Shown: positions 10,801-64,000 of the stretch, in pieces | Numbering within the stretch: position 1 is the first letter of the stretch | How the letters are laid out: each line of letters opens with the position of its first letter | Assembly (NCBI GenBank): GCA_016866955.1 | Contig: VGKT01000001.1 | Coordinates: 130,556-194,555, forward strand | Length of the DNA stretch: 64,000 bases | Origin: Candidatus Pacearchaeota archaeon | Lineage (GTDB): Archaea > Nanobdellota > Nanobdellia > Pacearchaeales > GW2011-AR1 | Direction of reading: 5' to 3' | Program-made: the position numbers and the translations under genes | Notes under the pieces: generated by a model | The model's input: only the letters and a program-made list of their open reading frames with translations | Databases searched by the model: none | What the model was told of the DNA's origin: nothing

Positions 10801-11088
10801 GATTCAGTTTGCCCTCTTCCCTGTTCGCTCGCTGCTACTAAGGGAATCACGTTATGTTTTCTTTTCCTACCGGTACTAAGATGTTTCAATTCCCGGCGTG
10901 CGCATGCTTCTCAGCATGTATGCGTTTTCGCATTCGGAAATCCTGGGCTCAATGCCTGCATGCGGCTCCCCCAGGCTTATCGCAGCTTGCCGCGTCCTTC
11001 ATCGCAATCCAAACCAAGCTATCCTTCTCAATAGTATGTAGTAAGTGAGCTCTCTCATGATAGAGAGATCTCTGATTCTGATGTAACC
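7882..11088 (-). rRNA. rrl: 23S rRNA (interrupted by a 367-nt insertion; about 2,840 nt without it)
   Basis: Minus-strand landmarks include GGUUACAUCAG...GCGAUGAAGGACGCGG at the 5' end, GGAUAACAGGCU and GAGCUGGGUUAAGAACGU. The sarcin-ricin loop AGUACGAGAGGAACGG lies at 8109-8124 and CUGAAAGCAUCUAAG at 8024-8038. The 5'/3' end helix pairs 7882-7890 with 11080-11088. Ends are accurate to about 10 nt. Confidence 0.9.
8185..8551 (-). other. insertion in 23S helix 93 after U2593 (E. coli numbering): candidate ORF-less group I-like intron
   Basis: The flanks AGAACGU | CGCGAGACAGUUUGU rejoin to the conserved H93 sequence. The insert contains GUAGAGACUUAGA and AAGGUAUAGUCC, which resemble group I R and S elements, plus several hairpins. 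Confidence 0.6.
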
Positions 11089-11801: not shown

Positions 11802-13248
<1,447 letters not shown>

Positions 13249-13545: not shown

Positions 13546-14112
13546 TTAACTCTTGTAGGAAAGGTTACGATACTTCATATCGACTGATTTTCCATCGTGC
13601 AGTAATTCTTTAATGCGCGCTTGTCCCGACGAGTCAATTTTGACTCTTACTTGTAGATTTGAGGTATCAAATTGCGCACCCTTCTCAAAGAAATATTGCT
13701 CAATGCCGTAGTCGATACTAGCTTGATTGCCTGCAACTCGTTTAACAATCCCTTTGATAAACAAACCAGATGTTGGTTTTTCACTCGATACTTTCGTCAA
13801 ACGAGCAATTCCTTCTGCATCATCTTTAAGTGATACATATACTTTGTCTCCTTCTTTTAAAGTAATGGGGCTCGCCCTATCAGCAGTTGAACTTTTTGGA
13901 GGACTAAATTCTATAACTGGGGGAATTGTTCCAATTTCATATCGAATTATAATATACTGTCCGCGAAGTGGATCAAACGGGTCAATGGGTTGTGTTGCGA
14001 GTGTTGCTTCTGCACCTGTAAGCAAAGGTAAACCAAGGTACAAACCAAACACGGCAAGTATTCCAAGCAATATTCCTAATCCTATGATGAGCTTTGTATA
14101 TGCTGGATTCAT
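13546..14112 (-). CDS. GDYXXLXY-domain membrane-anchored protein
   Basis: 188 aa with an N-terminal TM helix. DPFDPLRGQYIIIRYEI contains the name-giving G-[DQ]-Y-x-x-[LI]-x-Y motif. It overlaps the stop of the upstream DUF2157-like gene by 1 nt. Confidence 0.6.
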   Translation of the reverse strand: MNPAYTKLIIGLGILLGILAVFGLYLGLPLLTGAEATLATQPIDPFDPLRGQYIIIRYEIGTIPPVIEFSPPKSSTADRASPITLKEGDKVYVSLKDDAEGIARLTKVSSEKPTSGLFIKGIVKRVAGNQASIDYGIEQYFFEKGAQFDTSNLQVRVKIDSSGQARIKELLHDGKSVDMKYRNLSYKS

Positions 14113-47780: not shown

Positions 47781-48452
47781 TCATATTTTGCCCAAAACTA
47801 ATAAGACAAGTATGCCAAAACAGATAAGCGTGAAGAAGGAAATTTTCCAGATGGTTGTTTGCTCGAAAGAAGGTTCTGAAAGAGTATTGAGATAGAGAGG
47901 TGAAAGATTGTTTTGAGGGGGAGAGATAGTATGTATTGCACTTTGAGAGGAAATAGATAAAGGAGTTATTGGTTTTTTTTCCTTTTTTTCCTTTTTTGAA
48001 AGGGGTTCTTTTTGCTCTTCTTCCTTTTCTTCTTCCTGGTTTGATTGAGAAAGAGCAATAGTAAGCGGTTGACAGGTTTCTTCATATGCTGTTTTACCTA
48101 CTTTCCTAAGACGAACACAAAGTTCAGGGTTTATTCCGGTTTGTACGATCTTCAATGTGAAAGAAGTTTGCGTAGGAAATACTCCTTTGAGATAATAAAA
48201 TGTTGATTTTTCCTTTCCATCAACAATTATTTTCGAAAGATTTTGTAACTCTTGTGCTTGGACAAAGAGTTTGATATCGGCAGTTGTAGAGTCCTCGTGT
48301 GAAAGAGTAAGGGTGAAAGAATCGCCCATCTCAATGGAAGAAGGGGCCGAGAAGGATAAGGCAGAGGTAAAAGAACTAATGAAGATAGCCGTAACTACTG
48401 CGAGCAACCAGTTCATGCTGGTCTGTAAAGAGATAGGCTGTGTCTCGATCAT
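47781..48452 (-). CDS. hypothetical secreted/anchored protein
   Basis: 223 aa. The likely start is MNWLLAVVTAIF at 48416. It has an N-terminal signal, an E/K-rich linker and a C-terminal TM helix (ISFFTLICFGILVLLVL). It overlaps the nuclease gene's 3' end. Confidence 0.45.
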   Translation of the reverse strand: MIETQPISLQTSMNWLLAVVTAIFISSFTSALSFSAPSSIEMGDSFTLTLSHEDSTTADIKLFVQAQELQNLSKIIVDGKEKSTFYYLKGVFPTQTSFTLKIVQTGINPELCVRLRKVGKTAYEETCQPLTIALSQSNQEEEKEEEQKEPLSKKEKKEKKPITPLSISSQSAIHTISPPQNNLSPLYLNTLSEPSFEQTTIWKISFFTLICFGILVLLVLGKI

Positions 48453-49116
48453 TGTTCCAGACGTTTCCTACGCCCCATGAGAGATCGGTAGCATCTTGTG
48501 CTGATTCACTCCAAAGCGTTGTATTTCGACAAAGACCTTTGAACTTATAGGTTTTTCTACTTTCATCTTTAAGGTACCATCCATTGATTGTATCTGCATA
48601 ACAAGTACAGGTTATTTGTATTGCTTCTTTTTTCTCATCTATAGCTAAAGCAATGCAACCAAAAAAAGGAGACTTTTTCCAAATTCCTTTACTTGCATCC
48701 ACTGCTTGTTGTTCTGCTCGTGCAAACTTCTTACGTTCTTCTTCTTGAACTAAAAATATTGAAGCAAGCCCTTGTTGTACTAAATCAAGATTAAGATAGT
48801 TCTTTCCTACATAAATACGAGCAAGAAGACGATGATATTTGTCAGTACCCAGAATTTCTATCATTACTTCTGTTCCTTCATATTTTTTCATATAGCTTAT
48901 TGCCTCGAGACTTAAGGGAGACTCTTTTTCAGGAGTATTGATATTTACTAATCGTACTGTTCTACCATCGGTTGTTTTGAAAGTATCTCCATCAATAACT
49001 CGCTCAATTACTACGATTTCTTTTTCAGAATGTTCCTTGATGGTTAATAACGTAAATGTGTTATAGAGGGCAAGGGTACAGACCAATGCAAGAAGAAGCG
49101 CGTATATGAATCGCAT
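48376..49116 (-). CDS. secreted thermonuclease (SNase) fused to a lamin-tail-like domain
   Basis: 246 aa with an N-terminal TM/signal. The SNase part reads VIDGDTFKT..GRTVRLVNINTPE...DKYHRLLARIY...LVQQGLA. The C-terminal part reads GWYLKDESRKTYKF...VWNNDRDTAYLFTDQHELV. Confidence 0.7.
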   Translation of the reverse strand: MRFIYALLLALVCTLALYNTFTLLTIKEHSEKEIVVIERVIDGDTFKTTDGRTVRLVNINTPEKESPLSLEAISYMKKYEGTEVMIEILGTDKYHRLLARIYVGKNYLNLDLVQQGLASIFLVQEEERKKFARAEQQAVDASKGIWKKSPFFGCIALAIDEKKEAIQITCTCYADTINGWYLKDESRKTYKFKGLCRNTTLWSESAQDATDLSWGVGNVWNNDRDTAYLFTDQHELVARSSYGYLH

Positions 49117-51299: not shown

Positions 51300-51344
51300 T
51301 TACGATTACATGACATTTTTAAACTATAAATACTTAAATTTTTT

Positions 51345-51815
51345 ATGAATAAACGAGGTCTCTCACCTGTTGTGGCAACAGCTCTTTTGATTACAATTGC
51401 AGTTATTTTAGCAGCAATCCTTTTCTTCTGGGCGCGAGGATTGTTAACTGAGCAAAATCAAAAATTTGGAGAAGCTGTTGAAAATTCGTGTGAACGGGTT
51501 ATTTTCAAAGCTGAAGCGTTTGGAGATTCACTCTCTGTTTTAAATCGAGGAAATGTTCCCCTCTATGCTGTGGATGTACGTGTTGAAAATGCTGCTGAAG
51601 GGTCCATAGAATTTGTTAAAGCGTTTCGAGATAGTGCCAGTGGTAAAGAAGTCACTATCCCTCAAGGGTCTACTGCGCGAATAAATATTTCAGGACAAGG
51701 AATCGTACCAGGAAATACCTTATTGATACAGCCGGTTTTGTTAGGAAGTAAAGGAGGACAATCAGAAGTATACGCTTGTGAACGAAAAGCTATGCGTATC
51801 ACGGTTGCATCTTAA
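51345..51815 (+). CDS. archaeal type IV pilin-like protein (class III signal peptide)
   Basis: MNKRG/LSPVVATALLITIAVILAAILFF is the canonical archaeal pilin N-terminus. A TTTTTAAA box lies ~25 nt upstream. Confidence 0.75.
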   Translation: MNKRGLSPVVATALLITIAVILAAILFFWARGLLTEQNQKFGEAVENSCERVIFKAEAFGDSLSVLNRGNVPLYAVDVRVENAAEGSIEFVKAFRDSASGKEVTIPQGSTARINISGQGIVPGNTLLIQPVLLGSKGGQSEVYACERKAMRITVAS

Positions 51816-52317
51816 AATAGTACAACGAGGATTTTCGGCTATTGTTGCAACAGTGCTTATTGTAAGTTTAACGGTTATTATTGGTGCGGTACTGGCAGCG
51901 TATGTTATTCCATTCGTAAAAGATACTCTTTCAGGAAGTACGAGCTGTGTAGGTATTGCAAATTATTATTCATTTACCCAATCTACGGGATATAATTGTT
52001 ATACTTCTTCGCACTATAAGCTCTCTCTTGCTCAACGAGCAGATGGCAAAGGGGCAGAACAGATTGTAGGATTTAATTTAGTATTGGAAAGTGCTGATGG
52101 GGCAGGTACGCTTTTGGAAGCTCGTGCAACAACTGGCCCAACACTTATTTTCTTAAATGGGAGTACAACCTATCCGGGATTGCCAGGGCCTGGGAACATC
52201 AAAACCTACCGTTATAATTCTACTACTCGATATACTCGAGCAAAAGTGTATGCAGTGTTAGCTTCAGGTAAATCGTGTGACCAACAAGAGGGAGTAATTA
52301 CTTTACGCCAATGTTAA
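51778..52317 (+). CDS. archaeal type IV pilin-like protein
   Basis: ...IVQRG/FSAIVATVLIVSLTVIIGAVL. The real start may be the TTG at 51805 (MHLKIVQRG...), since the track ATG at 51778 overlaps the upstream gene by 38 nt. Confidence 0.65.
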   Translation: MNEKLCVSRLHLKIVQRGFSAIVATVLIVSLTVIIGAVLAAYVIPFVKDTLSGSTSCVGIANYYSFTQSTGYNCYTSSHYKLSLAQRADGKGAEQIVGFNLVLESADGAGTLLEARATTGPTLIFLNGSTTYPGLPGPGNIKTYRYNSTTRYTRAKVYAVLASGKSCDQQEGVITLRQC

Positions 52318-52835
52318 TGCGAGGACAGATTTGGGTTGAAACCGTATTGTATACGCTTTTAGGACTGGGATTGATGGGGCTTGTTATGGCATTTGCATTA
52401 CCGAAGATTACTGCTTCACAAGAACGAGCAGTTGTTGAACAGAGCATACAAAGTATGAATGCCCTTTATGGTGCAATTGAAACAGTGCAAACACGAGGTA
52501 CAGGAAATGTTAAAGTGGTGAGTTTTACGTTGCAAGCAGGCAATTTAGTAATTGATGGAACAAATGATACACTCGTTCTTACCTTGCCTGAACAAAAAAG
52601 TAAATATTCACAACCTGGTTCTCCAATTGAACAAGGCCCTGTAACGATTCTCACTGAAGAGCGATCAGGAAGCTACCAAGTTCTTCTCAGCGTTGCATTA
52701 CCTCGTATTAATCTTACCCTAAGTGGTTTAGATGATCAAAAAACATTAACTGCGGTAAGTACTGCGCATCGTATTACTGTGAGTGCTATTGGTACTCAAT
52801 CTGATCGTATGATTGTTTCTTTAGAGACAAGTTAA
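52311..52835 (+). CDS. type IV pilin-like protein
   Basis: M(LM)RG/QIWVETVLYTLLGLGLMGLVMAF has Glu at +5 after the Gly. The ATG at 52317 forms a TAATG overlap with the upstream stop. Confidence 0.6.
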   Translation: MLMRGQIWVETVLYTLLGLGLMGLVMAFALPKITASQERAVVEQSIQSMNALYGAIETVQTRGTGNVKVVSFTLQAGNLVIDGTNDTLVLTLPEQKSKYSQPGSPIEQGPVTILTEERSGSYQVLLSVALPRINLTLSGLDDQKTLTAVSTAHRITVSAIGTQSDRMIVSLETS

Positions 52836-52874
52836 CCAGAAGTTTTAAATACATTTTTACTTTATTACTATACA

Positions 52875-54401
52875 ATGGTGATATCTTTAAATTTAAATCC
52901 GAGCGTACCTAAGCTTCCCCGCATAGAGAATAAACAAGCTGTTGATGTACGATATATGCTTATTCCTCCTTATGCAGGAGCCCATATTTCTTGGAATGCG
53001 GAAACTAATGAATTAGTGTATGATTTAGAAGAACCTGTGTTACAAGATAAAGAAAAAGATGCCCTTAAGCGTATTGAAAATGCGTTGTTCGAATTGATTA
53101 ATATAAATATTACAGTGGAAAATACTCCTGAAGCAACAATCGCCTATTTGGATAAAACTTCTCGTTTATTGATAAGTGAATTAAATATTGCAATTAGTGA
53201 AGAATCATATCAAAAATTATTTTATTATTTATATCGAGATTTTGTAGGTATGAATGAAATTGAAGCATTGCTTAAAGATTATTTTATTGAAGATATTGAA
53301 TGTAATGGAATCGGTTCTCCGTTGTATGTTATTCATAGAGTATATCGTAATATTCGTACTAATGTTGTATTTCATGACCTAGATAAACTTGCAGGATTCG
53401 TAGAAAAATTGGCTCAACGTGCTGGTCGATATATCTCGTACGCTCAACCATTATTAGATGGTAGTTTACCTGATGGAAGCAGAGTCAATGCTTCTTATAC
53501 AAAAGACGTCACTTCTAAAGGCCCAACATTTACTATTCGTAAATTTACTAAAATCCCTTGGACCCCTACTCAATTACTTTCATTTAATTCAATTAGTCCA
53601 GAGATGCTTGCGTACTTCTGGTTATTGATAGAACATAAATCAAGTATTTTAGTTGCTGGAGGAACAGGAAGTGGAAAAACGACGTTGCTCAACGCCCTTG
53701 CATTCTTTATTCCTCCTGAAGCACGAGTAGTTAGTATTGAAGATACTCGTGAAATTAATCTTCCACGTGAGAACTGGTTACCTTCTGTTGCTCGCCCTTC
53801 TGTTGGATCAAGTAAAGTAGGAGAAATTGATTTATTTGCTTTGTTGAAAGCTTCATTCAGACAGACGCCGGATTATTTAATTGTGGGAGAAGTGCGAGGA
53901 AAAGAAGCATTCGTTTTGTTCCAGGGTATGGCTTCTGGTCACGCTTCATTGAGTACTATGCACGCAGACTCGGTAGATACCTTGATTAAACGTCTTGAAA
54001 CTCCCCCTATTGAACTTTCCCCGAGTCTGGTAAATACTCTTGATTGTGTGGCTGTTGCAACGCATGCAGTTATTAATCAAAAAGAAACAAGAAAATTAAA
54101 AGAGATTGTCGAAATTGTAAATGTTAATGGTGATGGTACTGCAATTGTAAACACTCCGTTTATTTGGGATCCTGCGCAAGATAAATTCTTCTTTAGAAAA
54201 CAAAGTAAAGTATTGGAGAAAATATCCACTCGGACAGGTATCCCTTTGGCAACTTTGCAAAATGAACTAGTTATTCGTTCTAAACTGTTATACCACCTCT
54301 ATCAAAAAAAGATTTTTGGATTTGAAGAAATTGGAAAAATAGTAAATCTCTATCATAAAGACCCTGCTGCTGTTTTGGCCCAATATCCCGTCGATGCATA
54401 A
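52875..54401 (+). CDS. type II/IV secretion ATPase (FlaI/PilB/TadA family)
   Basis: 508 aa. Walker A is VAGGTGSGKTTLLNAL, followed by VSIEDTREI, LIVGEVRGKEA and GHASLSTMHA. Confidence 0.85.
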   Translation: MVISLNLNPSVPKLPRIENKQAVDVRYMLIPPYAGAHISWNAETNELVYDLEEPVLQDKEKDALKRIENALFELININITVENTPEATIAYLDKTSRLLISELNIAISEESYQKLFYYLYRDFVGMNEIEALLKDYFIEDIECNGIGSPLYVIHRVYRNIRTNVVFHDLDKLAGFVEKLAQRAGRYISYAQPLLDGSLPDGSRVNASYTKDVTSKGPTFTIRKFTKIPWTPTQLLSFNSISPEMLAYFWLLIEHKSSILVAGGTGSGKTTLLNALAFFIPPEARVVSIEDTREINLPRENWLPSVARPSVGSSKVGEIDLFALLKASFRQTPDYLIVGEVRGKEAFVLFQGMASGHASLSTMHADSVDTLIKRLETPPIELSPSLVNTLDCVAVATHAVINQKETRKLKEIVEIVNVNGDGTAIVNTPFIWDPAQDKFFFRKQSKVLEKISTRTGIPLATLQNELVIRSKLLYHLYQKKIFGFEEIGKIVNLYHKDPAAVLAQYPVDA

Positions 54402-54436
54402 AGAACATATATAAACTGAATTCGTCATGGAGGAAT

Positions 54437-54598
54437 ATGAATCAAGAGCAGGTGATTACTCTTACTAGTTTATTATCTGCTATGCAAGATGCAATTACTC
54501 TTCTTGAGCAAGCAAAGAAAAAAAACGACGTTGAACTTGCTACAAAAACGAAACGATTACTATTAGATTTACAACAACAGGCGGAAAAAACAGTATGA
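54437..54598 (+). CDS. small coiled-coil protein (53 aa, below the ORF-track cut-off)
   Basis: MNQEQVITLTSLLSAMQDAITLLEQAKKKNDVELATKTKRLLLDLQQQAEKTV. A GGAGG lies 4 nt upstream of the ATG. Its stop overlaps the next ATG (ATGA). Confidence 0.5.
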   Translation: MNQEQVITLTSLLSAMQDAITLLEQAKKKNDVELATKTKRLLLDLQQQAEKTV

Positions 54599-55890
54599 TT
54601 GATGAATTACGAACTAATATTGCACAAGCATTGAGCTTGTTACGAACCATACAATCCTATCTTCGCTTACGAGAGCAAGGGGATAAAGCACAACAACGAT
54701 TGTTGGAACAAGGTATCGAAGCATCACGTCTTCAATTACAATTACTTATTAAATCGATTCCTACTTTACTTGCTGAACTTCCTACTGCTCAACCCTTGCC
54801 AAGTGCTAAAGTTGCTTCTTCCTCTACCTTGCAAACTGTAGAAACTGCTACTCAGGCAGTTGTTTTGAAAAAAGAGAATACGGCAGAATACTTGCAAACG
54901 CTCCAGGTCAATGAAGATACTTTGAATAGATTGAAGAATGCTGGACAACCAATTGTGCTTCCTTCTGCATCTAATTATGAACGTTCTCGAGGATATCTCA
55001 AAATCTCCCAACAATTATTTGGAAATATGTCCCGTTCGCTTATCCAAAAGGGGTATTATCGCATATTGGCCTTGACTTTACGTAAATCAAATATGGGTAT
55101 TTTATTTGAAAATTACATTTCTTTATTGCTCTTTAGTACAGTACTCGCATTTTGTGGGGGCATTGTTTTGTATCTTTTCTTTATATTTATGTCTCTTTCT
55201 CTTTCTCCTCCTTTTATTACGGCAGTTACTGAAAATATAGGGGGAAGAGCCTTGGTTCTTAGCTGGATTCCGTTCCTTACTGCACTCCTTACCTATCTTG
55301 CGGTTATTTATTATCCTGGTACCGAACAAGGAGGGGCCACTACACAAATTGAACGAGAATTACCCTTTGCAGTAATTCATATGAGTGCTATTTCAGGATC
55401 AGGTATTGAACCAAGTAATATTTTCAAGATTATTGCTGAAAGTAAAGAATACCCTTATTTAAGTAAAGAAATGCGTAAAATAATTAATCAGATGAATGTA
55501 TATGGGTATGATTTAGTTGCTTCCTTAAATGTCGTTTCGCAAAATACCCCTAGTCAAAAATTAGCAGATTTATTTGCAGGACTTTCTGCAACAATTACTT
55601 CTGGAGGAGGACTTTCAACTTTCTTTGCAAAACGTGCAGAAACTCTCTTATTAGATTATCGTTTGGAACGAGAGAAATTTACTAAGACTGCTGAAACCTT
55701 TATGGACTTATACATTACCTTGGTCATAGCCGCTCCAATGATTTTATTGTTAGTTATAATCATGTTACAATTAAGTAATTTTAGCTTTGGTGTTGGGCCA
55801 GGTTTGTTGACTTTCTTGATTATTGGAGTCATCGCGCTCTTAAATGTGGTATTCTTAAGCTTGTTACAGCTTAAACAACCGGTGAATTAA
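54595..55890 (+). CDS. pilus platform membrane protein, one T2SSF domain (TadB/FlaJ N-half-like) with a ~150-aa cytoplasmic coiled-coil N-terminus
   Basis: 431 aa. LPFAVIHMSAISGSGIEPSNIF...LADLFAGLSATITSGGGLSTFF...LDYRLERE, flanked by TM segments. Confidence 0.75.
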   Translation: MIDELRTNIAQALSLLRTIQSYLRLREQGDKAQQRLLEQGIEASRLQLQLLIKSIPTLLAELPTAQPLPSAKVASSSTLQTVETATQAVVLKKENTAEYLQTLQVNEDTLNRLKNAGQPIVLPSASNYERSRGYLKISQQLFGNMSRSLIQKGYYRILALTLRKSNMGILFENYISLLLFSTVLAFCGGIVLYLFFIFMSLSLSPPFITAVTENIGGRALVLSWIPFLTALLTYLAVIYYPGTEQGGATTQIERELPFAVIHMSAISGSGIEPSNIFKIIAESKEYPYLSKEMRKIINQMNVYGYDLVASLNVVSQNTPSQKLADLFAGLSATITSGGGLSTFFAKRAETLLLDYRLEREKFTKTAETFMDLYITLVIAAPMILLLVIIMLQLSNFSFGVGPGLLTFLIIGVIALLNVVFLSLLQLKQPVN

Positions 55891-55891
55891 A

Positions 55892-56752
55892 ATGAAATTA
55901 CAAAAAATGCATTGGTTAGGAATTATTGCGGGAGTAATTACTCTTCTCGTAGCCATTGGATTTTATATTGCAAGTGAAGATAGAAATCTTGCTTTTTTTG
56001 TAGGAAGTATTGGAATTACGCTGATAGTAGTGCCCTTCATTATAGATATTATTCTACAAACTCAACATGAAGATGAGATTGCTAATATGTTCTTGGAATT
56101 TAGCAGAGGTTTAGCAGAAAGTGTAAGTACAGGAACTCCGGTAAGTAAAAGCATCGTTAATATGCGAAATAAAAATTATGGGGTATTAACTCCGCACATT
56201 AGTAAATTAGGAAATCAAATTGCGTTAGGCATTCCCTTACATACTGCCTTAGAAACATTTGCTCGAGAAGTAAATAATCCGGTTATTACCCGCTCAGTTT
56301 CTTTAATTAGTGAAGCTGAACGAGCGGGAGGAGAGATTGATTATATTCTTGACTCAGTTGCTCGTTCAATAGCAGAAGTTGAAAAATTGAAAAAAGAACG
56401 ACAATCAGCAATTTCGAGTTTAGTAGTGCAAGGATATATCATTTTCTTTGTATTTATTGGAATTATGTTAGTTATGGAATTTAAGATACTACCCTTAGCG
56501 GTGAGTGTGGGACAGATTAGTATGGATGCACAAAATTTAGGGGCAATTGATGCAAGCGCTTCTGAAAAAATCGATCAAAAAACGCTCCCTAATCTTTTCC
56601 TTTCATTGTTAATAGCCCAAGGCTTTTTTGCAGGATTGATCATTGGTAAATTAGCGGAAGGAAAGATAAAAGCGGGCATTAAACACTCATTTATTTTGGT
56701 TGTGGTTGCATTACTTGTTTCAACCGGTGCTCGATACCTTTTGCAGGATTGA
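55892..56752 (+). CDS. pilus platform membrane protein, second T2SSF domain (TadC/FlaJ C-half-like); the 3' end is remodelled by a tandem duplication
   Basis: 286 aa. FSRGLAESVSTGTPVSKSI...LGNQIALGIPLHTALETFA...SLISEAERAGGEID. It starts 1 nt after the upstream stop. Confidence 0.75.
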   Translation: MKLQKMHWLGIIAGVITLLVAIGFYIASEDRNLAFFVGSIGITLIVVPFIIDIILQTQHEDEIANMFLEFSRGLAESVSTGTPVSKSIVNMRNKNYGVLTPHISKLGNQIALGIPLHTALETFAREVNNPVITRSVSLISEAERAGGEIDYILDSVARSIAEVEKLKKERQSAISSLVVQGYIIFFVFIGIMLVMEFKILPLAVSVGQISMDAQNLGAIDASASEKIDQKTLPNLFLSLLIAQGFFAGLIIGKLAEGKIKAGIKHSFILVVVALLVSTGARYLLQD

Positions 56753-56847
56753 TCATTGGTAAATTAGCGGAAGGAAAGATAAAAGCGGGCATTAAACACT
56801 CATTTATTTTGGTTGTGGTTGCATTACTTGTTTCAACCGGTGCTCGA
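56626..56847. repeat. perfect 109-bp tandem direct duplication separated by 4 nt (tacc)
   Basis: 56626-56734 is identical to 56739-56847 (ttttgcaggattgatcattggtaaattagcgg...caaccggtgctcga). The period is 113 nt. Confidence 0.95.
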
Positions 56848-57555
56848 AACTTTATCGGTTCGGCGAGCTAAATAAAACAATTCATTTGATGAAGAAAATG
56901 TCTCAAACGAATAACTATTAGTCGTTAATGCTTTTTCAAACCAGAGGCGCCGAATGGTTTGCATTCTTTTTCCTGAAAGAGAAATAGTCGGAAAACTTGC
57001 AAGTAGATAGGTTGTTTTGAGTAAACGAAGTATTTTTGTGGCGTTTGCATGTCCTTTCTTATCAATAATATCGAGGATTTTATAAGCAAGGACGAGATCT
57101 ACTTCAGGAAACGATGATTCTTGGGTGATGTCTGTTACTTTTGTTTTTCCAATAATTCCCTCACTACTAAAATACGCTTTAACTTTCGCTACATCTTGTT
57201 CATTGATATCATATGCGTAGTACTCAATATCTTTTGTTGCTTGATAGAGTGGATTTTGTCCTGCCCCCAAATCAAGAATTCTTTTCGGAGCGAGCATGGC
57301 AATACGTTTATTTAACAAGGGATAAAAGGGCATTCGTTCTTTGGTTGAAAGATGTTCTTTGGTTGAAGAAATATGGTATCTCCCCGACATCTTCCTTAAT
57401 TCACGACGTATTGTTTTGAGAATGATTTTTTCGTCTTTTTTACTTATTTTTTTTCCATCTGGAAGAAATTTCTTTAGATTTTCAGCAATATATTTATCTG
57501 GAATGCCTTTGAGTTCTTTCTTACTTTTTATTTGGGCAATTAATTCAGAATACAT
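56833..57555 (-). CDS. FmrO-family 16S rRNA methyltransferase homolog (RmtB/ArmA-like, G1405-N7 type)
   Basis: I chose the ATG at 57555 (240 aa). HLSTKERMPFY...KRILDLGAGQNPL, DLVLAYKILDII, ASFPTISLSGKRM and NELFYLARR parallel RmtB as I remember it. Confidence 0.65.
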   Translation of the reverse strand: MYSELIAQIKSKKELKGIPDKYIAENLKKFLPDGKKISKKDEKIILKTIRRELRKMSGRYHISSTKEHLSTKERMPFYPLLNKRIAMLAPKRILDLGAGQNPLYQATKDIEYYAYDINEQDVAKVKAYFSSEGIIGKTKVTDITQESSFPEVDLVLAYKILDIIDKKGHANATKILRLLKTTYLLASFPTISLSGKRMQTIRRLWFEKALTTNSYSFETFSSSNELFYLARRTDKVSSTG

Positions 57556-57573
57556 TATTGTTTGAAGCAAAGG

Positions 57574-57585
57574 GTATATAAAAAG
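57574..57585. promoter_or_regulatory. near-palindromic TATA region shared by the divergent methyltransferase and the second pilin subcluster
   Basis: gtatataaaaag lies 19-30 nt from both the ATG at 57555 (minus) and the ATG at 57604 (plus). aaaggagg precedes 57604. Confidence 0.45.
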
Positions 57586-57603
57586 CTGGTGTGAAAAGGA
57601 GGC

Positions 57604-58296
57604 ATGAGGCGAGGGATCAATCAACTTGAAATGGTCTTGGCATTTCTTATTTTTATTGGGGCAATAGCTGGAAGCGTATTTTTCCTCCAAACTTTTCGAG
57701 CACAAACAGAACAATTTTCACAAGCAGAAGTCTGGGTGGATAGTTTGCAAAAAGCTATGGAAGACGAAGTACTAGTTACTTCTTTTTTATTGAATCGAAC
57801 CTCGATTGGTGCACTAGCAACACTTACTTTTAATATTAGTAATCCTTCACTACCTACCGTGTTGGTAAATGCAAGTAATGCATTAATATCGAGCGAACAT
57901 GCGGAAACGCACCTTTCATTTAATCCCCAAACAAGCACAAATAAAGGATTTATTATACAATCGCGATCACTTATTGAACAAAAAGGATCCTCCTCAAATT
58001 CCCCTATTCCTGGAACCTATCTTTTGAGTGCACCTACCACTCGACAAATAGTTACTGAAACACGTATACGTACCTTACAAGAACAGCTTACTACTTCACA
58101 GGCTGCGACCTTGACCAGTTTGGGTTTACCTCCCTCACTTACTATTCGCCTTGCATTCTCAGCCCCGGGAGTTTCTATTGCTTCAACCCTCGCTCCCCCT
58201 CAAGACCGAGAAGTGCGCACGATTACTCGACGAGTTGAACTTATGACTAAGGAAGGAAACTTTATATTTGGTACTCTCCAGATAACCTTATGGTAA
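57604..58296 (+). CDS. type IV pilin-like protein (large)
   Basis: MRRG/INQLEMVLAFLIFIGAIAGSVFF has Glu at +5. 230 aa. Confidence 0.6.
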   Translation: MRRGINQLEMVLAFLIFIGAIAGSVFFLQTFRAQTEQFSQAEVWVDSLQKAMEDEVLVTSFLLNRTSIGALATLTFNISNPSLPTVLVNASNALISSEHAETHLSFNPQTSTNKGFIIQSRSLIEQKGSSSNSPIPGTYLLSAPTTRQIVTETRIRTLQEQLTTSQAATLTSLGLPPSLTIRLAFSAPGVSIASTLAPPQDREVRTITRRVELMTKEGNFIFGTLQITLW

Positions 58297-58688
58297 GAGG
58301 ATGGTTACGTATTGTTGAAGCAGTAATTGCAATTCTTATCGTTGCATCTTCTATTTTGATTGTATTACAACAAGAGCAGACACGATTTGATGCAAATTTG
58401 TGTGCTCCTCTTGCTCCGTTACTTCAAGAAATTGGACAAACCTCTACCCTTCGTGCGGCCGTACTTGCAAAAGAAGAAAGTACAATCAATGCGTTTCTTA
58501 CTACACACATTACAAATCCTACAATCGCATTTTCATTTTCATTTTGTGCCCCTCAAGACGTATGTAGTTTTACTGGAGAAGATGTTTCTAAAGATAGCGA
58601 TGTTTGTGCAGATGAACGTATTATTACACCCCCTGATGACACTCAAAACATCACTAAATTAAAGGTGTTTCTCTATCGTAGTTCTTAA
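58290..58688 (+). CDS. type IV pilin-like protein (minor pilin candidate)
   Basis: MVRG/WLRIVEAVIAILIVASSILIV. 132 aa, with a 7-nt overlap with the upstream gene. Confidence 0.55.
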   Translation: MVRGWLRIVEAVIAILIVASSILIVLQQEQTRFDANLCAPLAPLLQEIGQTSTLRAAVLAKEESTINAFLTTHITNPTIAFSFSFCAPQDVCSFTGEDVSKDSDVCADERIITPPDDTQNITKLKVFLYRSS

Positions 58689-58723
58689 AGAGAGGTTTAT
58701 AAAGAAGCAGACGGTAGAGACAT

Positions 58724-58972
58724 ATGGTTGACGCTCTTGTTGAGGAATATACTATGCGTAATTATATCCTCTATATTTTTCTCGGATTGTTAGCATTTGT
58801 TCTTATTGTGTGGTGTTTTTTTTATCTCGCAAAAGATCGCACGGTCGAAACACTCCAAGAAACAGGATTTCAATCTCAGAATGTAAGCGATCTTCGTCCT
58901 TCTTCTGAAACGGTTTTTCTCGAAACTCCAACATCTGTCGTTAATGCGCAGAGAGGTTCTGATGAAAAGTAA
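58724..58972 (+). CDS. small single-pass membrane protein
   Basis: The 82-aa ORF may start at 58754 (MRNYILYIFLGLLAFVLIVWCFFYL). No family recognised. Confidence 0.4.
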   Translation: MVDALVEEYTMRNYILYIFLGLLAFVLIVWCFFYLAKDRTVETLQETGFQSQNVSDLRPSSETVFLETPTSVVNAQRGSDEK

Positions 58973-61900
58973 CTTCCTTCCTCTGTTAAGTGTATGTGTT
59001 TTTTTTATAATTAGTTTAGCAAGTGCTGCCCCCCCTTCCATTCTTATCCCCTTCGATAGTGAAAATCATGACACTGCTCCCTTTTATTGGAGAAATCTAA
59101 GTATAACTCAAAACTATCCCCTTCCTGCCCTTTCGAGTACACAAGTAAAATTTGGAACACGGAGTCTCTTCTTTGATGGGACAGATAAAAGTATTGCCTA
59201 TCTAGCACAAGAACGTTCTCTGGAGATGGCAGGTAAAGACTTTACGATCGATTTTTGGTATCATCCTTTGAGCTTACCCGGCAAGACAGATGTTATCGGC
59301 GGAACTCAGATACAACATGATCTTTTTCGACTTATCAACGCACAAGATCGCACCAAGGATTTGTTATTTTACACGCAGAGTTTGCCAGGCTCGAATACTC
59401 CTGGGCGACTCATGCTTGCCCAAATAAACTACCAAGTCTCACCTCCTACGACAGAGAGTGTTCAACTATTAAAATCAAGTCGATCTGAGCAGATGACGCT
59501 CAATCAGTGGAATCATGTTGCACTTATGTGGAAACAGGGCAAGGGATACGCAATCGCTATTAATGGACGAATCTCTTCTAGTAATGGTTGGTATAATGAA
59601 CCCCCTTTTTTGAGTATTTCTTATACTCATCTTTATTTAAGTAGCCCTTATTTTCTCAACTCTCGTCCCCTTCATGGCTATCTTGATCAATTTCGTGTGA
59701 CGATTGGGGAAGCCATTTGGGGCGATACGCCGCAAGGAGGAACGTTTACCCCTCCAACTGTACCGACTGCCCCTTACAATTACACTATCTATCATTGGGA
59801 TCGCGCTTCGGATGGCACGACCAGTACGACCGGTGATTACACCCTTACCGCTCCTGCGGGCGGTCGCGTTGCGCAGATTGAACTCATTGGTTCAGGAGGA
59901 GGGGGTATGCAAACCTGTCCTGCCTTTAGCTGTTTCCTAGGGGGGAATGGTGGCGGAGGTGGAGCATATGGAAATCATACCTATTCATTAGTATCTGGAG
60001 GGCAGTACGCTTTGCACGTAGGGAAAGCAGGGAAAGGGGGAAGTTTAGGTTATTCTAATGATATGACATCAGGTGAAGAAACGTTTATCCAACAAGTAGG
60101 GGTGCCCTCAACGAAGCTTTATGCGGCGGGTGGGAAAGTCGGTGGCGGTGGCAGTGGCGGTGGCAGTGGCGGTGCGGGAGGGACGAGTAATGCCATTCAC
60201 TCTATCTCTGGTCAACCTGGACAGGCAATCCCCAATTATAATGGTGGGGCAGGGGGTAGCTCCGGATCTGGTGCAGCCGGAGGAACGAGCGGACACTTTA
60301 CTGAAATCGCAGGCTATACGAAGCAACTTATTTCTGGAAAGCGTTATGGTGGTGGAGGGGCAGGAGGAGGAGGAACAGATGGGGGCAATGGTGCTGAAGG
60401 ACTTATGGTACTTACGTACACAATAGGAACAGTCGCATTGCCTATCTGTGGAAGTAATGGATGTGAAGTGGGAGAAACTGCAGTGTCCTGTCCTGCGGAT
60501 TGTTCTGTAAGTCTTCCGCCTGTTGTCCCTGTTTCTTCTTGTCCTCTTAATCAAACACTCTTCAAACTCTATCAAGGAGGAAACTCCCATATTGCAAATG
60601 CTTCCACCTCTAATGCTGGAATAGCTGTTTGTTATTCGGATATTTTTGGAGTGAATTATACGGGCGCAAATCCTCATCAGTGTTCCGCAGAGAATGCAAA
60701 TAAACTTATATGGGCTACCGGCACACAGAATGCACACGTTGCTACAGTGACTTCTCTTACGTATGCAACACCGTATTGTTATGGGGATGTTGTGTGCAAT
60801 GCGCGAATAGGAAGTTGTCAAGGATCTGAACGAATTGTTGCACGCCTTCCTAATGGAACCGCTACGAGTAATCTGCATATTGGAAATGCAAGCTTTACAA
60901 CATATAACCGCGTACTCTGCTGTTCAAGTGCCTTTGCGGGAGAAGTATTTGGTATTCCGCAATGGACAACGCCAACAGGCACGAGCATTACATCGGCACA
61001 AGTAAATCAAACCGTTAATTTGAGCGTCACTACTTCGCTTGCTCTTGGAACTTCTGTTGTTGTTCAGATAGAAGAAGATGATGGACTTATTGGAGATGAT
61101 GATGCGATTGTTACACTTCCAGGGATAGTAAGTAATGGTAAAATAAGCATTTCACTCAAACTTAATGATACGTATATTGCGAAAGGAAAAGAGGGAGATG
61201 GAAGTGCAAATGAATTAGTCTTTACAGGAAAAGTAAGTGGAGGGGGGGCAACTTCTTCTGAAGCCTCGTTACTTGTTAGTTTACAGCAAGGAGGAACTCC
61301 GTATTTACTTGAAGGAAATATTACGGGCGTGTATCATGGACAGGTGTATGTAAATGGATCTGGATTGAGTATTAATCATACGTTTTCACGTGCAGGGAAC
61401 CTGCAGGTGAATTGGAGTATACCTGAAGAAGGCATACGACAAACCGGTGACTCATTTGTGTATAACTTGACGACGACTGGACAGAAGACCTTGACTTTAC
61501 ATGTTTCTAATACTTATGGAGGACATGCAGAGTTACAAATTGGTTTCTTGGTGGTGCCGAGTTCAGGAGGAGATGGATTGATGACCTTTATTGATTATCC
61601 AGGATATTATCAAATTGTTAAAACGGGACGTAATTCAAGCACTACGTTTATTGCAGGAGCAAATACCAGTTTTGCGCTTCTTCGCAATAGCAGTTCGTGT
61701 GGGGCGTTTATCTGCTTCGGAGGGATATGTCCAACCACAACCAATAACACGGATGTCTTGTGTGGGGGAACTACTCGAGCAATTAGTTCTACTCCTCAAT
61801 CACATGCCGCTCTCCGATTCACTTGGGAATTAAATCAAGGAGGAACATGGCAATTAATAGAAACAGGAATGGGGCAGATTACCCGATCGATCTCTTTGGG

Positions 61901-62693
61901 AAGTTCTTCCTATTCAACACTACTTAATGATAAACAGATACGTGTGATTACCAATTATACCGTTTCAGGCACAAGTTTGGAAAATACGTTTGTTCGTTCA
62001 TTTACCCTTGGACAATGTCTTGATAATGGACATCAATTTGCAGTGGTTAATTCCAGAAAACAATTTGTCCGATTGGTAGGAACTGTACCAGGAGAAGGGA
62101 CGGCTACGATTCCATTTAATATGACTGCTTGTCGAGGCGAAGATGACCTTAATGGAACGCTGGATGATTGCGTACCAGCTGGTTGGAGCTGCGGTGATAA
62201 CGGTGCATTTATGCCTGTAGTGAATGGAAGTGTAGCTCCGCCTGTCTTTTGTGATGACTTGAAAACGAAGAATACTTGTGAGAACGCACATCTTGTATTC
62301 CCTTCACAAGTTTCCTGTTTAGGAACTTCACAGGGGGCATCGTGTGTCTGGGATCCGATTCGTAATGGTGGAAACGGAGCATGTGGAACGAAGTATACTG
62401 TTCTCTCCCCTGCTGGAGGAACAGACACGTGTACTGAATTCTTTAATCCGGGAAGTACTTGTGTTGAAGGATTACGTGATGTGACCATTGATGCCACCTT
62501 TACTCCTACCAATAATGTGTGTTCGGCATTTCAAAGTGCCTGTATAGACCGAGCAGATACCTTAGTGTGTGGAAGACCAGCATATGAGTTACCGTTCTTT
62601 GGTTGGTGGCAGATGGTGATTGGAGGGTTGGGCATTATTATGCTTTGTCTTTTGCGTCGAATGAAAGCTAGAACCTTTTTAAACTTGAAATGA
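58962..62693 (+). CDS. giant surface protein: signal peptide, LamG-like lectin domain, glycine-rich domain, Cys-knot spacers, C-terminal TM anchor
   Basis: I chose the ATG at 58962 (MKSNFLPLLSVCVFFIISLASA). The LamG-like part reads FDGTDKSIAY...FTIDFWYHP...WNHVALMW. The glycine-rich part reads IELIGSGGGG...GGNGGGGGAYG...GLMVLTY. CGSNGCEVGETAVSCPADC follows, and the protein ends WWQMVIGGLGIIMLCLLRRMK. Confidence 0.7.
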   Translation: MKSNFLPLLSVCVFFIISLASAAPPSILIPFDSENHDTAPFYWRNLSITQNYPLPALSSTQVKFGTRSLFFDGTDKSIAYLAQERSLEMAGKDFTIDFWYHPLSLPGKTDVIGGTQIQHDLFRLINAQDRTKDLLFYTQSLPGSNTPGRLMLAQINYQVSPPTTESVQLLKSSRSEQMTLNQWNHVALMWKQGKGYAIAINGRISSSNGWYNEPPFLSISYTHLYLSSPYFLNSRPLHGYLDQFRVTIGEAIWGDTPQGGTFTPPTVPTAPYNYTIYHWDRASDGTTSTTGDYTLTAPAGGRVAQIELIGSGGGGMQTCPAFSCFLGGNGGGGGAYGNHTYSLVSGGQYALHVGKAGKGGSLGYSNDMTSGEETFIQQVGVPSTKLYAAGGKVGGGGSGGGSGGAGGTSNAIHSISGQPGQAIPNYNGGAGGSSGSGAAGGTSGHFTEIAGYTKQLISGKRYGGGGAGGGGTDGGNGAEGLMVLTYTIGTVALPICGSNGCEVGETAVSCPADCSVSLPPVVPVSSCPLNQTLFKLYQGGNSHIANASTSNAGIAVCYSDIFGVNYTGANPHQCSAENANKLIWATGTQNAHVATVTSLTYATPYCYGDVVCNARIGSCQGSERIVARLPNGTATSNLHIGNASFTTYNRVLCCSSAFAGEVFGIPQWTTPTGTSITSAQVNQTVNLSVTTSLALGTSVVVQIEEDDGLIGDDDAIVTLPGIVSNGKISISLKLNDTYIAKGKEGDGSANELVFTGKVSGGGATSSEASLLVSLQQGGTPYLLEGNITGVYHGQVYVNGSGLSINHTFSRAGNLQVNWSIPEEGIRQTGDSFVYNLTTTGQKTLTLHVSNTYGGHAELQIGFLVVPSSGGDGLMTFIDYPGYYQIVKTGRNSSTTFIAGANTSFALLRNSSSCGAFICFGGICPTTTNNTDVLCGGTTRAISSTPQSHAALRFTWELNQGGTWQLIETGMGQITRSISLGSSSYSTLLNDKQIRVITNYTVSGTSLENTFVRSFTLGQCLDNGHQFAVVNSRKQFVRLVGTVPGEGTATIPFNMTACRGEDDLNGTLDDCVPAGWSCGDNGAFMPVVNGSVAPPVFCDDLKTKNTCENAHLVFPSQVSCLGTSQGASCVWDPIRNGGNGACGTKYTVLSPAGGTDTCTEFFNPGSTCVEGLRDVTIDATFTPTNNVCSAFQSACIDRADTLVCGRPAYELPFFGWWQMVIGGLGIIMLCLLRRMKARTFLNLK

Positions 62694-62704
62694 GTGTGTT
62701 AGAT

Positions 62705-64000
62705 ATGCGGGTGATTCCTTTTTGTACTTATGTCGTGCTCAGTATTTTTTTCTTGAGTATGGTGGGGGCACAACTGACGTTACAAAGCGAAACAGTCCAG
62801 CGCAACCTTACCAGTGGTCAGTTAGTAACGGGACAAGTGGTGCTCAAGAGTACGAATCATCCGGGAGAAACAAGCATTACTTCTAGTTATCCGTATAACC
62901 GAACAACATTGTTATCTTGGATAGAACAAAGTGGATTACTTGAAGGAGTTGACTATACCTGTTCCCTTCCTGGATGTAAAGCACGTACACGAGCAGTTTC
63001 TCCTCTGGCTTCCTCATTTATGCTTTCATCAAATACTACTTTTTTGTTTGGATTTAACGTTACAAAACAAGATACCTTATTAGAGGCATTTACAATGACT
63101 CTTTCTTCTGATGCTCCTGCGTCTTGCGTTACTCCATTCACTCTCACCATTGGTAATGAACGCACCCTCGTAAGTTCTGCGTATCAACCTGATCTTTTAT
63201 GTGGAGACGTTTCGTATGGTTGTTTCAATAGAGACTTGAGTAGTCTATACCAATTAGTTGAAGTTACCTCACAAGGAGTATGTTCTCGTATGCACTTACC
63301 AAGTGCTCCGGCATTTATGTTGGGAGCACGTATACAAAATACGAGCACGAGTGAATCAACACTCTCTATGAAAGTCTATCGCAACGACACTGAATTTGTG
63401 GGCGCTTGTACCTTACCTCCTTTGACACAAGCGATACAAGATGTGCGATGCACCTTTAACCAAAGTTTGCTTGCAGATTCTTATTATGTGTGTGTGAGCG
63501 CTGAACAACCCGATAGCTCATATCAAATACAAGTTGAGGAAACACTTCCAGTATGTGGAACTGCAGAATTGGGTGGACAAACAATTATTGATTTTGAAAT
63601 ATTTGCACAACCCTATGGATATGCTCCTCCTCGAACTATTTCAATACCGCAGGCATTTCAAAATCAGTATGGACAAGCACTTTCTGAATATCTTGACGAT
63701 TACCTTCTCAATACGTATGGACGAATTTGTACGGGAGGATGTACTGTCCCTTTCGGATTGCTGGGTAATGCACAACAAATTACTTTACAAAATGTAAGTA
63801 CTCGTTATAGTTCAAGTGGTCTTAAGACCACCAGTACAACGTTGTATACTGCTGAACAACAAAAACCCACGATAACGGGTAATCTTACTCTTCCTCTTGG
63901 TCCTCTGGGTATTCGTGCTCCTCTCAATCCAGGGACACAAATATTCAAATTACAAGCAGGTCCTACTACGTTACTTTCCCTCCCTCTTTCTATTATTGGA
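62705..64000 (+). CDS. secreted protein, N-terminal 432 aa (continues beyond the right edge)
   Basis: Absent from the ORF track because it is open to the window end. MRVIPFCTYVVLSIFFLSMVGAQ is a signal peptide. The protein is Cys-containing, T/S/N-rich and has no stop through 64000. Confidence 0.6.
   Translation, partial: MRVIPFCTYVVLSIFFLSMVGAQLTLQSETVQRNLTSGQLVTGQVVLKSTNHPGETSITSSYPYNRTTLLSWIEQSGLLEGVDYTCSLPGCKARTRAVSPLASSFMLSSNTTFLFGFNVTKQDTLLEAFTMTLSSDAPASCVTPFTLTIGNERTLVSSAYQPDLLCGDVSYGCFNRDLSSLYQLVEVTSQGVCSRMHLPSAPAFMLGARIQNTSTSESTLSMKVYRNDTEFVGACTLPPLTQAIQDVRCTFNQSLLADSYYVCVSAEQPDSSYQIQVEETLPVCGTAELGGQTIIDFEIFAQPYGYAPPRTISIPQAFQNQYGQALSEYLDDYLLNTYGRICTGGCTVPFGLLGNAQQITLQNVSTRYSSSGLKTTSTTLYTAEQQKPTITGNLTLPLGPLGIRAPLNPGTQIFKLQAGPTTLLSLPLSIIG

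Follow-up and report, generated by a model that had tools for sequence, protein, structure and literature searches.

A conserved type IV pilus locus and a variable surface-protein island in a Pacearchaeota archaeon: a candidate contact apparatus

The locus described here raises the question of whether a filament machine and the large surface proteins encoded directly behind it serve a small archaeon in contacting other cells. It lies at positions 51345-64000 of a 64-kb stretch of DNA from a Candidatus Pacearchaeota archaeon, referred to below as the window. Pacearchaeota and Woesearchaeota are abundant, uncultured and ultra-small, and they are presumed to be attached to other cells. An original prediction, made from the sequence of the window, had proposed a compact type IV filament locus followed by giant surface proteins. 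We compared the locus with 80 related species-level loci by tblastn and motif scans; counts for single genes were restricted to loci with enough flank, which gave denominators of 64, 71, 72 or 52. We predict with high confidence that the locus encodes a type IV pilus machine. The best overall explanation for the pilus locus and its surface proteins taken together is a contact apparatus, which we regard as reasonably probable, and a role in host attachment is plausible.

As predicted, the filament locus was compact. It comprises five proteins with class III (prepilin-type) N-termini, an ATPase of the FlaI/GspE type, a helical protein of 53 amino acids (aa) and a split FlaJ/TadC platform, and its downstream end consists of two large membrane-anchored surface proteins. 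All genes listed in the original prediction were found at or near their positions, the domain calls held in Pfam and NCBIfam scans, and the gene junctions were as described, with overlaps of 11, 7, 4 and 7 nucleotides (nt) and a gap of 1 nt. One gene had been overlooked, a minus-strand methyltransferase gene of the FmrO family that splits the cluster. The pilin/ATPase/platform core was collinear in nearly all of the 80 related species genomes, and the locus type was found across Pacearchaeota and Woesearchaeota. Judged by sequence comparison across these 80 species-level genomes, the conservation of the five N-terminal class III motifs, the 53-aa open reading frame (ORF) and the gene order is far beyond chance. 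The locus was the only filament machine in the surrounding 74 kb (the window plus 10 kb downstream), and no paralogues of its proteins were found elsewhere in the window.

The motor part of the locus was well defined. The assembly ATPase (52875-54401, plus strand; 508 aa) belongs to the GspE/FlaI/PilB superfamily (T2SSE, 4e-31) and is of the hexameric type, and its gene is the only ATPase gene in the locus. The P-loop motif reads GGTGSGKTT; the remaining catalytic boxes were assessed only by visual inspection. Its best match in the PDB was GspE2 of A. fulgidus (2OAP), with 370 bits over the full length (residues 23 to 501), compared with 283 bits for Sulfolobus FlaI, where only the core was aligned, and 158 bits for CpaF. 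The ATPase scored 374.5 bits with the FlaI equivalog of NCBIfam (cutoff 550) and 141 bits with the TadA model TIGR03819 (cutoff 373). Relatives were numerous. Among 8,000 candidates scored, 7,772 matched at E<=1e-30, and the number of homologues is thus at least 7,772. The best 120 were nearly all 69-76% identical and were named Pacearchaeota, Woesearchaeota, Nanoarchaeota or Nanoarchaeia, and 564 stretches of the GTDB species genomes encode a relative of the ATPase.

The ATPase gene is followed by s53 (54437-54598, plus strand), which encodes a predicted soluble helical protein of 53 aa and overlaps the next gene by 4 nt, an arrangement of translational coupling. An ORF of 45-86 aa, mostly 53, occupied the corresponding place in 70 of 72 loci, with the consensus M.KE(D/E)I.LLAQLL..MKDA..KLE.A.KKKD...AKKEIL.FQ.QI..LL. 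No Pfam family was assigned to it. On this comparison s53 is a real, as yet unnamed component. The next two genes encode the platform. The N-half (54595-55890, plus strand; 431 aa) has a cytoplasmic, coiled-coil-like extension of about 160 aa and one T2SSF domain (4e-16), while the C-half (55892-56752, plus strand; 286 aa) has one T2SSF domain (1.5e-15). Since the first aligned to positions 42-248 and the second to positions 265-550 of the FlaJ model (555 positions), the platform is split into an N- and a C-half. Matches by tblastn were obtained for the two halves in 69 and 68 of 71 loci, respectively.

Two of the five class III proteins resembled archaeal filament subunits. The first, pilA1 (51345-51815, plus strand), encodes a PilA-type archaeal type IV pilin of 156 aa with the signal MNKRG↓LSPVVATALLI (the arrow marks the predicted cut). 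Because it passed TIGR02537 (31.9 bits, cutoff 20; Pilin_N 7e-5), pilA1 is taken as a true homologue of filament pilins. The motif K/R-G↓(L/V/I)SPVIATVLLI was kept in every one of the 60 loci with a tblastn match, out of 64, and two Cys residues are invariant in the family. The family profile matched the type IV pilus pilin of P. calidifontis (8FK7) with 1.8e-12 and 50.8 bits, covering the helix and the globular domain. The second gene, pilA2 (51805-52317, plus strand), encodes a PilA-type pilin of 170 aa with the signal MHLKIVQRG↓FSAIVATVLIV. The mechanical ORF opens at GTG 51778, and TTG 51805 is the likely start. Its matches were sub-threshold (Pilin_N 3e-4, TIGR02537 16.8 bits); the motif KKG↓(V/L)S.(V/I)IATVLL was conserved, and tblastn matches were found in 54 of 64 loci. 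Together, pilA1 and pilA2 are the best candidates for the filament shaft, that is, the major subunit; their family shares homology with the pilin of an archaeal pilus whose structure is solved.

The remaining three had an N-terminus of another kind. The gene pil3 (52311-52835, plus strand; 172-174 aa) starts with the bacterial-style RG↓QIWVE, with Gln at +1 and Glu at +5. The pattern G/A/S-Q-(I/V)-W-x-E was found in 57 of 64 loci (tblastn 60 of 64), and the full conserved signal is (G/A/S)↓Q(I/V)W(I/V)ETV.YTLIGL. Its single family match was to ComGE, weak (4e-4) and under the cutoff. Against Geobacter and Pseudomonas pilins the profile gave weak matches of the N-terminal helix (E 0.01-0.9), and with Pfam Class_IIIsignal there was no match at E<=0.1. 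The second protein, p230 (57604-58296, plus strand; 230 aa), has the signal RRG↓INQLE with Glu at +5 and a conserved C-terminus ...(V/I)(K/T)(I/V/L)W. It had no match in Pfam, NCBIfam, PHROG or the PDB, and its globular part is an orphan. Behind the platform, 44 of 52 loci encode a K/R-G↓xxH(I/V)E motif followed by a hydrophobic helix, and the conserved signal extends to KRG↓.SH(I/V)E.IL(S/A)F. The gene of the third, p132 (58290-58688, plus strand; 132 aa), overlaps p230 by 7 nt; the protein has the signal VRG↓WLRIVE with Glu at +6, carries two invariant Cys residues and had no family or PDB match. The motif KKG↓W(L/I)RI(V/I)E, or more fully KKG↓W(L/I)RI(V/I)EA, was present in 45 of 52 loci. 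All three thus share a Glu at position +5 or +6 relative to the predicted cleavage site. A Glu at +5 after the cut is a hallmark of bacterial type IV pilins and pseudopilins. From their N-terminal motif, size and position, pil3, p230 and p132 are candidate minor pilins. Profile-profile comparisons of the pilin families aligned at most the N-terminal helix (for p230 and pil3, only the N-terminal 50 residues), and a common ancestry of the globular parts is unsupported.

In distant relatives (L035, L037, L043, L047-L049 and L065-L074) two extra pilin-like genes were found upstream of pilA1, with the signals MNKRG↓QF(F/Y)(L/I)IAA... and KKG↓(L/V)SE(I/M)(V/I)(G/A)YVLLI. The lineage of the window is without them, and a thioredoxin reductase gene adjoins pilA1.

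Two promoters had been predicted, and TATA-like boxes were indeed found before pilA1 and p230. At pilA1, one or more TATA-like elements (TTTTTAAACTATAAATA) lie at 51313-51331 on the plus strand, about 15-30 nt upstream of the ATG. In relatives, in-frame translation of the stretch 24-30 nt before the start of pilA1 gives V/I-F-K time and again, that is, the stretch is GTTTTTAAA-like. The pilA1 transcript is likely to have a short leader or none. The box before p230 (GTATATAAAA; 57575-57584, plus strand) lies about 22 nt before the ATG, within a divergent intergenic region of 48 bp shared with the methyltransferase gene, and a GGAGG stands just 5' of the ATG. Upstream of p230 homologues a Y-K (TAyAAr) recurs. 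However, a third box was found before an 82-aa ORF that follows p132 (see below), and the large proteins may accordingly be a separate unit.

From these parts the following working of the machine can be proposed. A prepilin peptidase encoded elsewhere would cut the five precursors after the conserved Gly. The motor of ATPase and platform would then extract pilA1 and pilA2 from the membrane and polymerise them into the shaft. The proteins pil3, p230 and p132, with their Glu at +5 or +6, might act as low-abundance priming or tip subunits in the manner of bacterial minor pilins. The filament would make the first contact with a surface or a partner cell, and the variable heads of the surface proteins would provide specific binding, so that pilus and surface proteins together would form the contact apparatus of the cell.

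The first of the large proteins, the giant, is encoded at 58944-62693 on the plus strand (1,249 aa from the first ATG, 1,243 aa from Met7) and has a C-terminal transmembrane (TM) helix. The prediction of an anchored giant with LamG and glycine-rich parts was correct insofar as both domains scored above their cutoffs and the C-terminal TM helix is present, but the LamG/glycine-rich part is not conserved. This part is the head (aa 1-520; 58944-60503). It has a signal peptide, a LamG/ConA-like domain at aa 93-252 (Laminin_G_3, 30.6 bits, cutoff 27.6) and a glycine-rich region at aa 295-492 (Gly_rich_2, 33.2 bits, cutoff 24.3). Residues 148-491 matched PHROG 863, a phage family annotated 'tail fiber assembly', with 1.2e-9, and any resemblance of the glycine-rich part to phage adhesin tips rests on this one match. 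An AlphaFold2 model from an alignment of 16 sequences reached a mean predicted local distance difference test (pLDDT) score of 50.8. The LamG part was the only usable portion (60-85), and the glycine-rich part remained unmodelled. The modelled LamG part matched ConA-like carbohydrate-binding lectin and toxin receptor-binding jelly rolls (Foldseek E about 1e-6, with a low-confidence model). The head thus includes a LamG domain of lectin fold, for which sugar binding is at most predicted.

By tblastn, the LamG/glycine-rich head was absent from all 80 related loci, the closest relative included. An exhaustive HMMER search of the head against 1.84 billion representatives gave 388 matches, almost all of them to the LamG part alone, and the same layout of LamG and glycine-rich parts was found only in P0128. 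Nor was there any similarity between the LamG head of the window and the LamG giants encoded in related islands.

In relatives, tblastn matches were confined to aa ~480-1249 of the giant. This region contains the conserved stalk (aa ~540-1208) and the C-terminal anchor (together 60561-62693, plus strand), the latter consisting of VCGRPAYELPFFGWWQ, the TM helix and RR..K. The stalk is Cys-rich and beta-rich and carries many N-x-S/T sequons. A word-indexed search found five members of the giant family, with four different heads on one Cys-rich stalk plus anchor, and in the alignment of the five stalks many Cys residues were invariant. The AlphaFold2 model of the stalk, built on these five sequences, had a mean pLDDT of 45.9 and was not used for a fold search. 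By its architecture the giant is a chimera, with a head specific to the lineage and with a stalk and anchor that are conserved. The C-terminal tail (62568-62693 in the window) has the order C-G-x-P, about 5 residues, LPFFG, a TM helix whose end often reads ..IY.., and a group of basic residues. At least 20 loci show this tail, and it was kept in the first large ORFs of L006-L084 where the rest of the protein could not be aligned. Curated models of C-terminal sorting signals (PGF-CTERM, CGP-CTERM and others) gave no NCBIfam family for the giant at E<=0.01. The tail looks like a sorting or anchoring signal and, since no curated CTERM model matches, represents an unclassified motif.

The second large protein, p877, follows with an ATGA overlap (62690-64000, plus strand). 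The window holds the first 437 of its 877 aa, with a signal peptide and part of a large ectodomain, before the gene runs off the end. On the full contig (L005) it has a PKD domain (27.4 bits, cutoff 23.5), a TM helix at aa ~760-785 and a cytoplasmic tail of about 95 aa. Full-length homologues were found in 20 loci, in each case immediately before the GTPase-OapB-OapC genes, with identities of 25-34% (73% in L087). The motif of the cytoplasmic tail, DGKRTGMWEIPLF (GW.GEQI.YA..K.DGKRTGMWE.P.F), was far better conserved than the ectodomain. In the window lineage the last ~10 residues of p877 are seemingly frameshifted (L005 13747-17041); ARFIKTPF, the C-terminal peptide of p877 homologues elsewhere, is encoded here in the upstream extension of the next GTPase ORF.

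Between p132 and p877 the gene content differed strongly. Close relatives (L086 10001-23015, L087 1-15390) have 4-5 genes here, namely a stalk paralogue, a 77-83-aa ORF, a protein of 1,567-1,666 aa with LamG, PKD and discoidin domains, a protein of about 400 aa and another stalk paralogue. In the window there are only an ORF of 82 aa that is not conserved and one chimeric giant, and on account of this difference we describe the region as a hypervariable surface-protein island. The 82-aa ORF (58724-58972, plus strand) corresponds to the small TM protein of the original prediction. The ORF with its one TM helix is present, but the gene is doubtful: tblastn found it in 0 of 80 loci, the closest relative has no gap at the site, and it showed no similarity to the 77-83-aa ORFs of related islands. 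The latter carry a sequence resembling a bacterial lipobox (LAGC/LQGC). The 82-aa ORF is preceded, at a distance of about 25 nt, by a TATA-like box (58694-58703), and the large proteins may have a promoter of their own.

As the original prediction held, large anchored surface proteins follow the pilus genes, and the same two families do so in many related genomes. Of the 20 loci with flanking synteny, 17 had a member of the stalk or p877 family in the 10 kb downstream, and 14 of the 24 loci without upstream synteny still had one there.

Several observations weigh against the contact apparatus. No pilin globular domain was detectable in pil3, p230 or p132 in profile searches against PDB sequences. 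A prepilin peptidase was found neither in the 64-kb window, where all ORFs of at least 150 aa were included in a TM scan, nor in the 10 kb downstream, which agrees with the original prediction. The Pfam searches behind this and the other absences below covered about 15.6-64 kb of the window and 10 kb beyond it, and positions 1-15 kb were covered by the TM scan and by rRNA and tRNA scans only. The sole GxGD-type protease downstream was a presenilin-like SPP 7.5 kb beyond p877, with no A24 match. Class III signal peptidases are often encoded elsewhere in the genome. As to the large proteins, neither family occurred within 10 kb in 10 of the 24 distant loci, and in the near clade the flanking housekeeping genes (thioredoxin reductase, nuclease, GTPase) were as syntenic as the large proteins, so that adjacency alone is weak evidence of coupling. 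In addition, both large proteins are membrane-anchored and hence not obviously carried on the filament, and the possible promoter before the 82-aa ORF would set them apart from the pilus genes. We consider a functional coupling of pilus and large proteins plausible, at about even odds.

Several of these points would be expected if the pilus is real and serves generic surface adhesion, while the large proteins are ordinary envelope proteins (S-layer-like or glycocalyx) or mere neighbours. Pressure from phages or predators would then account for their variation, and mechanistically the proteins would be unconnected with the filament. The separate TATA-like box, the equally syntenic housekeeping flanks and the 10 distant loci with neither family fit this well. 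Both proteins have TM anchors, many Cys residues and many N-glycosylation sequons, and Cys-rich, C-terminally anchored S-layer-like proteins are frequent beside archaeal pilus loci (PMC4858521). However, the linkage persists in the 14 loci that lack flanking synteny, the strongly conserved cytoplasmic tail of p877 suggests an intracellular partner, and the heads resemble binding modules of the lectin and tail-fibre kinds, not domains that form lattices. We therefore regard ordinary envelope proteins as an unlikely explanation, though one that deserves serious weight.

The contact apparatus can also be put in a stronger form. The five-pilin machine and the two large proteins might constitute one host-recognition device, in which the minor-pilin-like trio primes a filament and the head of the stalk protein is swapped by recombination among lineages. 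We offer this as a speculative extension that is rather improbable as it stands. If it were true, coupling would run through the cytoplasmic tail of p877 and the C-G-x-P...LPFFG anchor, by physical or regulatory means, and the downstream island would be a host-range cassette of Pacearchaeota, much as phages exchange their tail fibres.

A nuclease with an SNase fold and a lamin-tail (LTD) domain, predicted to be secreted or anchored, is encoded 2 kb upstream of the locus (48376-49116, minus strand) and is syntenic in 22 loci. It bears on the idea that DPANN archaea scavenge extracellular DNA. Acting together with this signal-bearing nuclease, the filament could be a competence-like device for the uptake of DNA or nutrients in an archaeon unable to make nucleotides; pilus-mediated DNA import has been proposed for DPANN (PMC7414124), and pil3 gave its weak match to the competence minor pilin ComGE. 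This match was far under the cutoff, though, and driven by the hydrophobic helix, and no ComEC, ComEA or DprA-like gene was found in the locus. The nuclease gene lies on the opposite strand with two housekeeping genes in between and shares the general synteny of the region. We consider an uptake function to have little chance of being correct.

A reduced archaellum, that is, a motility organelle, was rejected and is largely refuted, with hardly any likelihood left: FlaI is the best NCBIfam model for the ATPase, the platform halves match FlaJ models and the closest solved pilin relative is the subunit of a 'flagellar-like' pilus, but the FlaI score stays well under the equivalog cutoff of 550, the non-archaellar GspE2 matches better, N-domain included, the 8FK7 filament does not supercoil and is classed as a pilus (PMC10334743), and, as the original prediction had stated for the accessory genes, no archaellin domain, FlaH, FlaF, FlaG, FlaC/D/E or FlaX was found in the searched part of the window or the 10 kb downstream.

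The methyltransferase gene that splits the cluster (56833-57555, minus strand) encodes a homologue of the FmrO-family 16S rRNA (G1405-N7) methyltransferases (PF07091, 38.5 bits, cutoff 27; PDB 6PI9, 1.8e-12). It keeps the platform genes apart from p230 and p132, the second pair of pilin-like genes, and was seen in this place in 32 of 52 loci. Where the loci are more distant, p230 and p132 directly follow the platform, and the methyltransferase gene is therefore read as a later insertion. The protein is probably not part of the pilus machine. Its relatives form the FmrO/Rmt/Sgm family of the aminoglycoside-resistance type.

A perfect tandem duplication of 113 bp (56626-56847; 2.0 copies, 100% match in Tandem Repeats Finder) spans the 3' end of the gene for the platform C-half. 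It rewrites the last five codons of the gene, so that the protein ends in ...GARYLLQD* instead of ...GARNFIGSAS*, and it creates a spurious ORF of 40 aa (56749-56871). The same duplication was present on contigs from two samples, and one further contig breaks off within it. The duplication may be genuine, or its copy number may stem from an ambiguity of the assembly.

The window further contains an archaeal rRNA operon (large subunit 7894-11050, small subunit 11802-13247) and has a G+C content of about 39%. The nearest species-level genome was a Pacearchaeota metagenome-assembled genome from Lake Baikal (L006), with an ATPase 91% identical to that of the window. Genes identical to those of the window were found on contigs of two JGI metagenomes, 3300020193 and 3300020200. 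The organism is a Pacearchaeota (DPANN) archaeon, presumably from fresh water. A membrane protein of 486 aa with DUF2157 (14112-15572, minus strand) adjoins the rRNA operon and has about 10 TM helices and a Cys-rich extracellular loop of about 110 aa. A discoidin (F5/8 type C) protein of 784 aa is encoded at 16488-18842 on the minus strand, between the genes of RNA polymerase Rpb6 and ribosomal protein S2, and is another candidate surface-binding protein.

Comparison with known systems placed the locus among the archaeal type IV filaments. It has an ATPase, a platform with two T2SSF domains (on two genes) and class III subunits, whereas a class III signal peptidase is not among its genes. With its minimal set of ATPase, platform and pilins, its split platform and its large anchored proteins, it resembles the euryarchaeal-type and System 1/2/4A filament systems of Makarova 2016 and of Sivabalasarma and Albers 2026. 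Platforms encoded by two genes occur in System 1 (Epd), in many clade 2 loci and in 4A/4B, including some DPANN, and large adhesin-like as well as Cys-rich, C-terminally anchored S-layer-like proteins occur in archaeal type IV filament loci (PMC4858521; 10.64898/2026.04.22.720090). The two-gene platform of the locus is thus shared with Epd/System 1, but it is not diagnostic, since it is also found in clade 2, 4A and 4B (PMC4858521). Other marks of Epd, a 9-TM EppA and a short major pilin (about 70 aa) with QxSxE, were not found: there is no multi-TM peptidase, and the pilins are PilA-type with 156-170 aa. No MinD/KaiC-type ATPase was found in the locus. The split platform fits System 1 or 4A, while the euryarchaeal type better accommodates the PilA-type pilins, the missing EppA and the N-domain of the ATPase, which is GspE2-like. 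The ranking of GspE2 above FlaI by score is no more than suggestive. The bacterial Tad/Flp system is more remote. CpaF was distant from the ATPase (158 vs 370 bits), and the locus has no short Flp-like pilin, secretin or TadV.

The subunit of the solved P. calidifontis pilus is homologous to the pilA1 family, with modest similarity, and a Cys pair is present in both, forming an intramolecular disulfide in the solved pilin (PMC10334743). P. calidifontis, however, is a hyperthermophilic crenarchaeon, and its pilus locus has a KaiC/FlaH-like ATPase that is lacking here (PMC10334743). With the bacterial type IVa complex of minor pilins and PilY1 at the pilus tip, the locus shares an arrangement in which several putatively low-abundance pilins with Gly-1 and Glu+5 stand beside a large non-pilin adhesin. 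In contrast to PilY1, the large proteins are membrane-anchored, and secretin, PilMNOP and a retraction ATPase are missing; the likeness is an analogy only.

Hamm et al. 2024 (PMC11291902) report that cluster-2 DPANN, Pacearchaeota and Woesearchaeota among them, share two conserved loci of the type IV pilus kind. Those loci and ours belong to the same lineages and combine a CpaF/FlaI-type ATPase, a TadC-type platform and pilins with small or coiled-coil proteins, here s53 and the coiled-coil-like N-extension of the platform, about 160 aa in length. The focus of that account, unlike ours, is on Nanohaloarchaeota and on long coiled-coil proteins similar to viral sigma-1, and the comparison is one of descriptions only. 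The parts of it considered here describe no minor-pilin-like trio, no split platform, no pair of stalk and p877 proteins and no exchange of heads. In 'Ca. Mancarchaeum acidiphilum' Mia14, LamG jelly-roll proteins are expanded, some are linked to type IV pili loci, and a role in host interaction was proposed (Golyshina 2017, PMC5498576). Mia14 likewise belongs to DPANN, has LamG proteins adjoining type IV pilus loci and lacks an archaellum, but it is a member of Micrarchaeota, and its loci lie in genomic islands (PMC5498576). In the window the LamG domain belongs only to the head, which is specific to the lineage and sits on a stalk protein that is conserved, and its likeness to the Mia14 proteins is again by description only. 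In episymbiotic Saccharibacteria, type IV pili are needed for host association, as cited in PMC11291902 and PMC11623550.

In summary, DPANN pilus loci, split platforms and LamG proteins linked to pilus loci are already known, and the general picture is unchanged. To call the locus an uncharacterised system, as the original prediction did, was an overstatement, since the locus is present across Pacearchaeota and Woesearchaeota and these features have been published; the locus type is known but experimentally untouched. The comparison adds the minor-pilin-like trio with Gly-1 and Glu+5, the near-universal 53-aa partner, the p877 tail, the C-terminal anchor motif and the head-swapping island as new details, and each of them provides a testable hypothesis on host specificity. 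The core of the locus is among the best-conserved non-housekeeping gene sets of the group and thus offers a handle for experiments, with pilA1 as a target and with markers for attachment.

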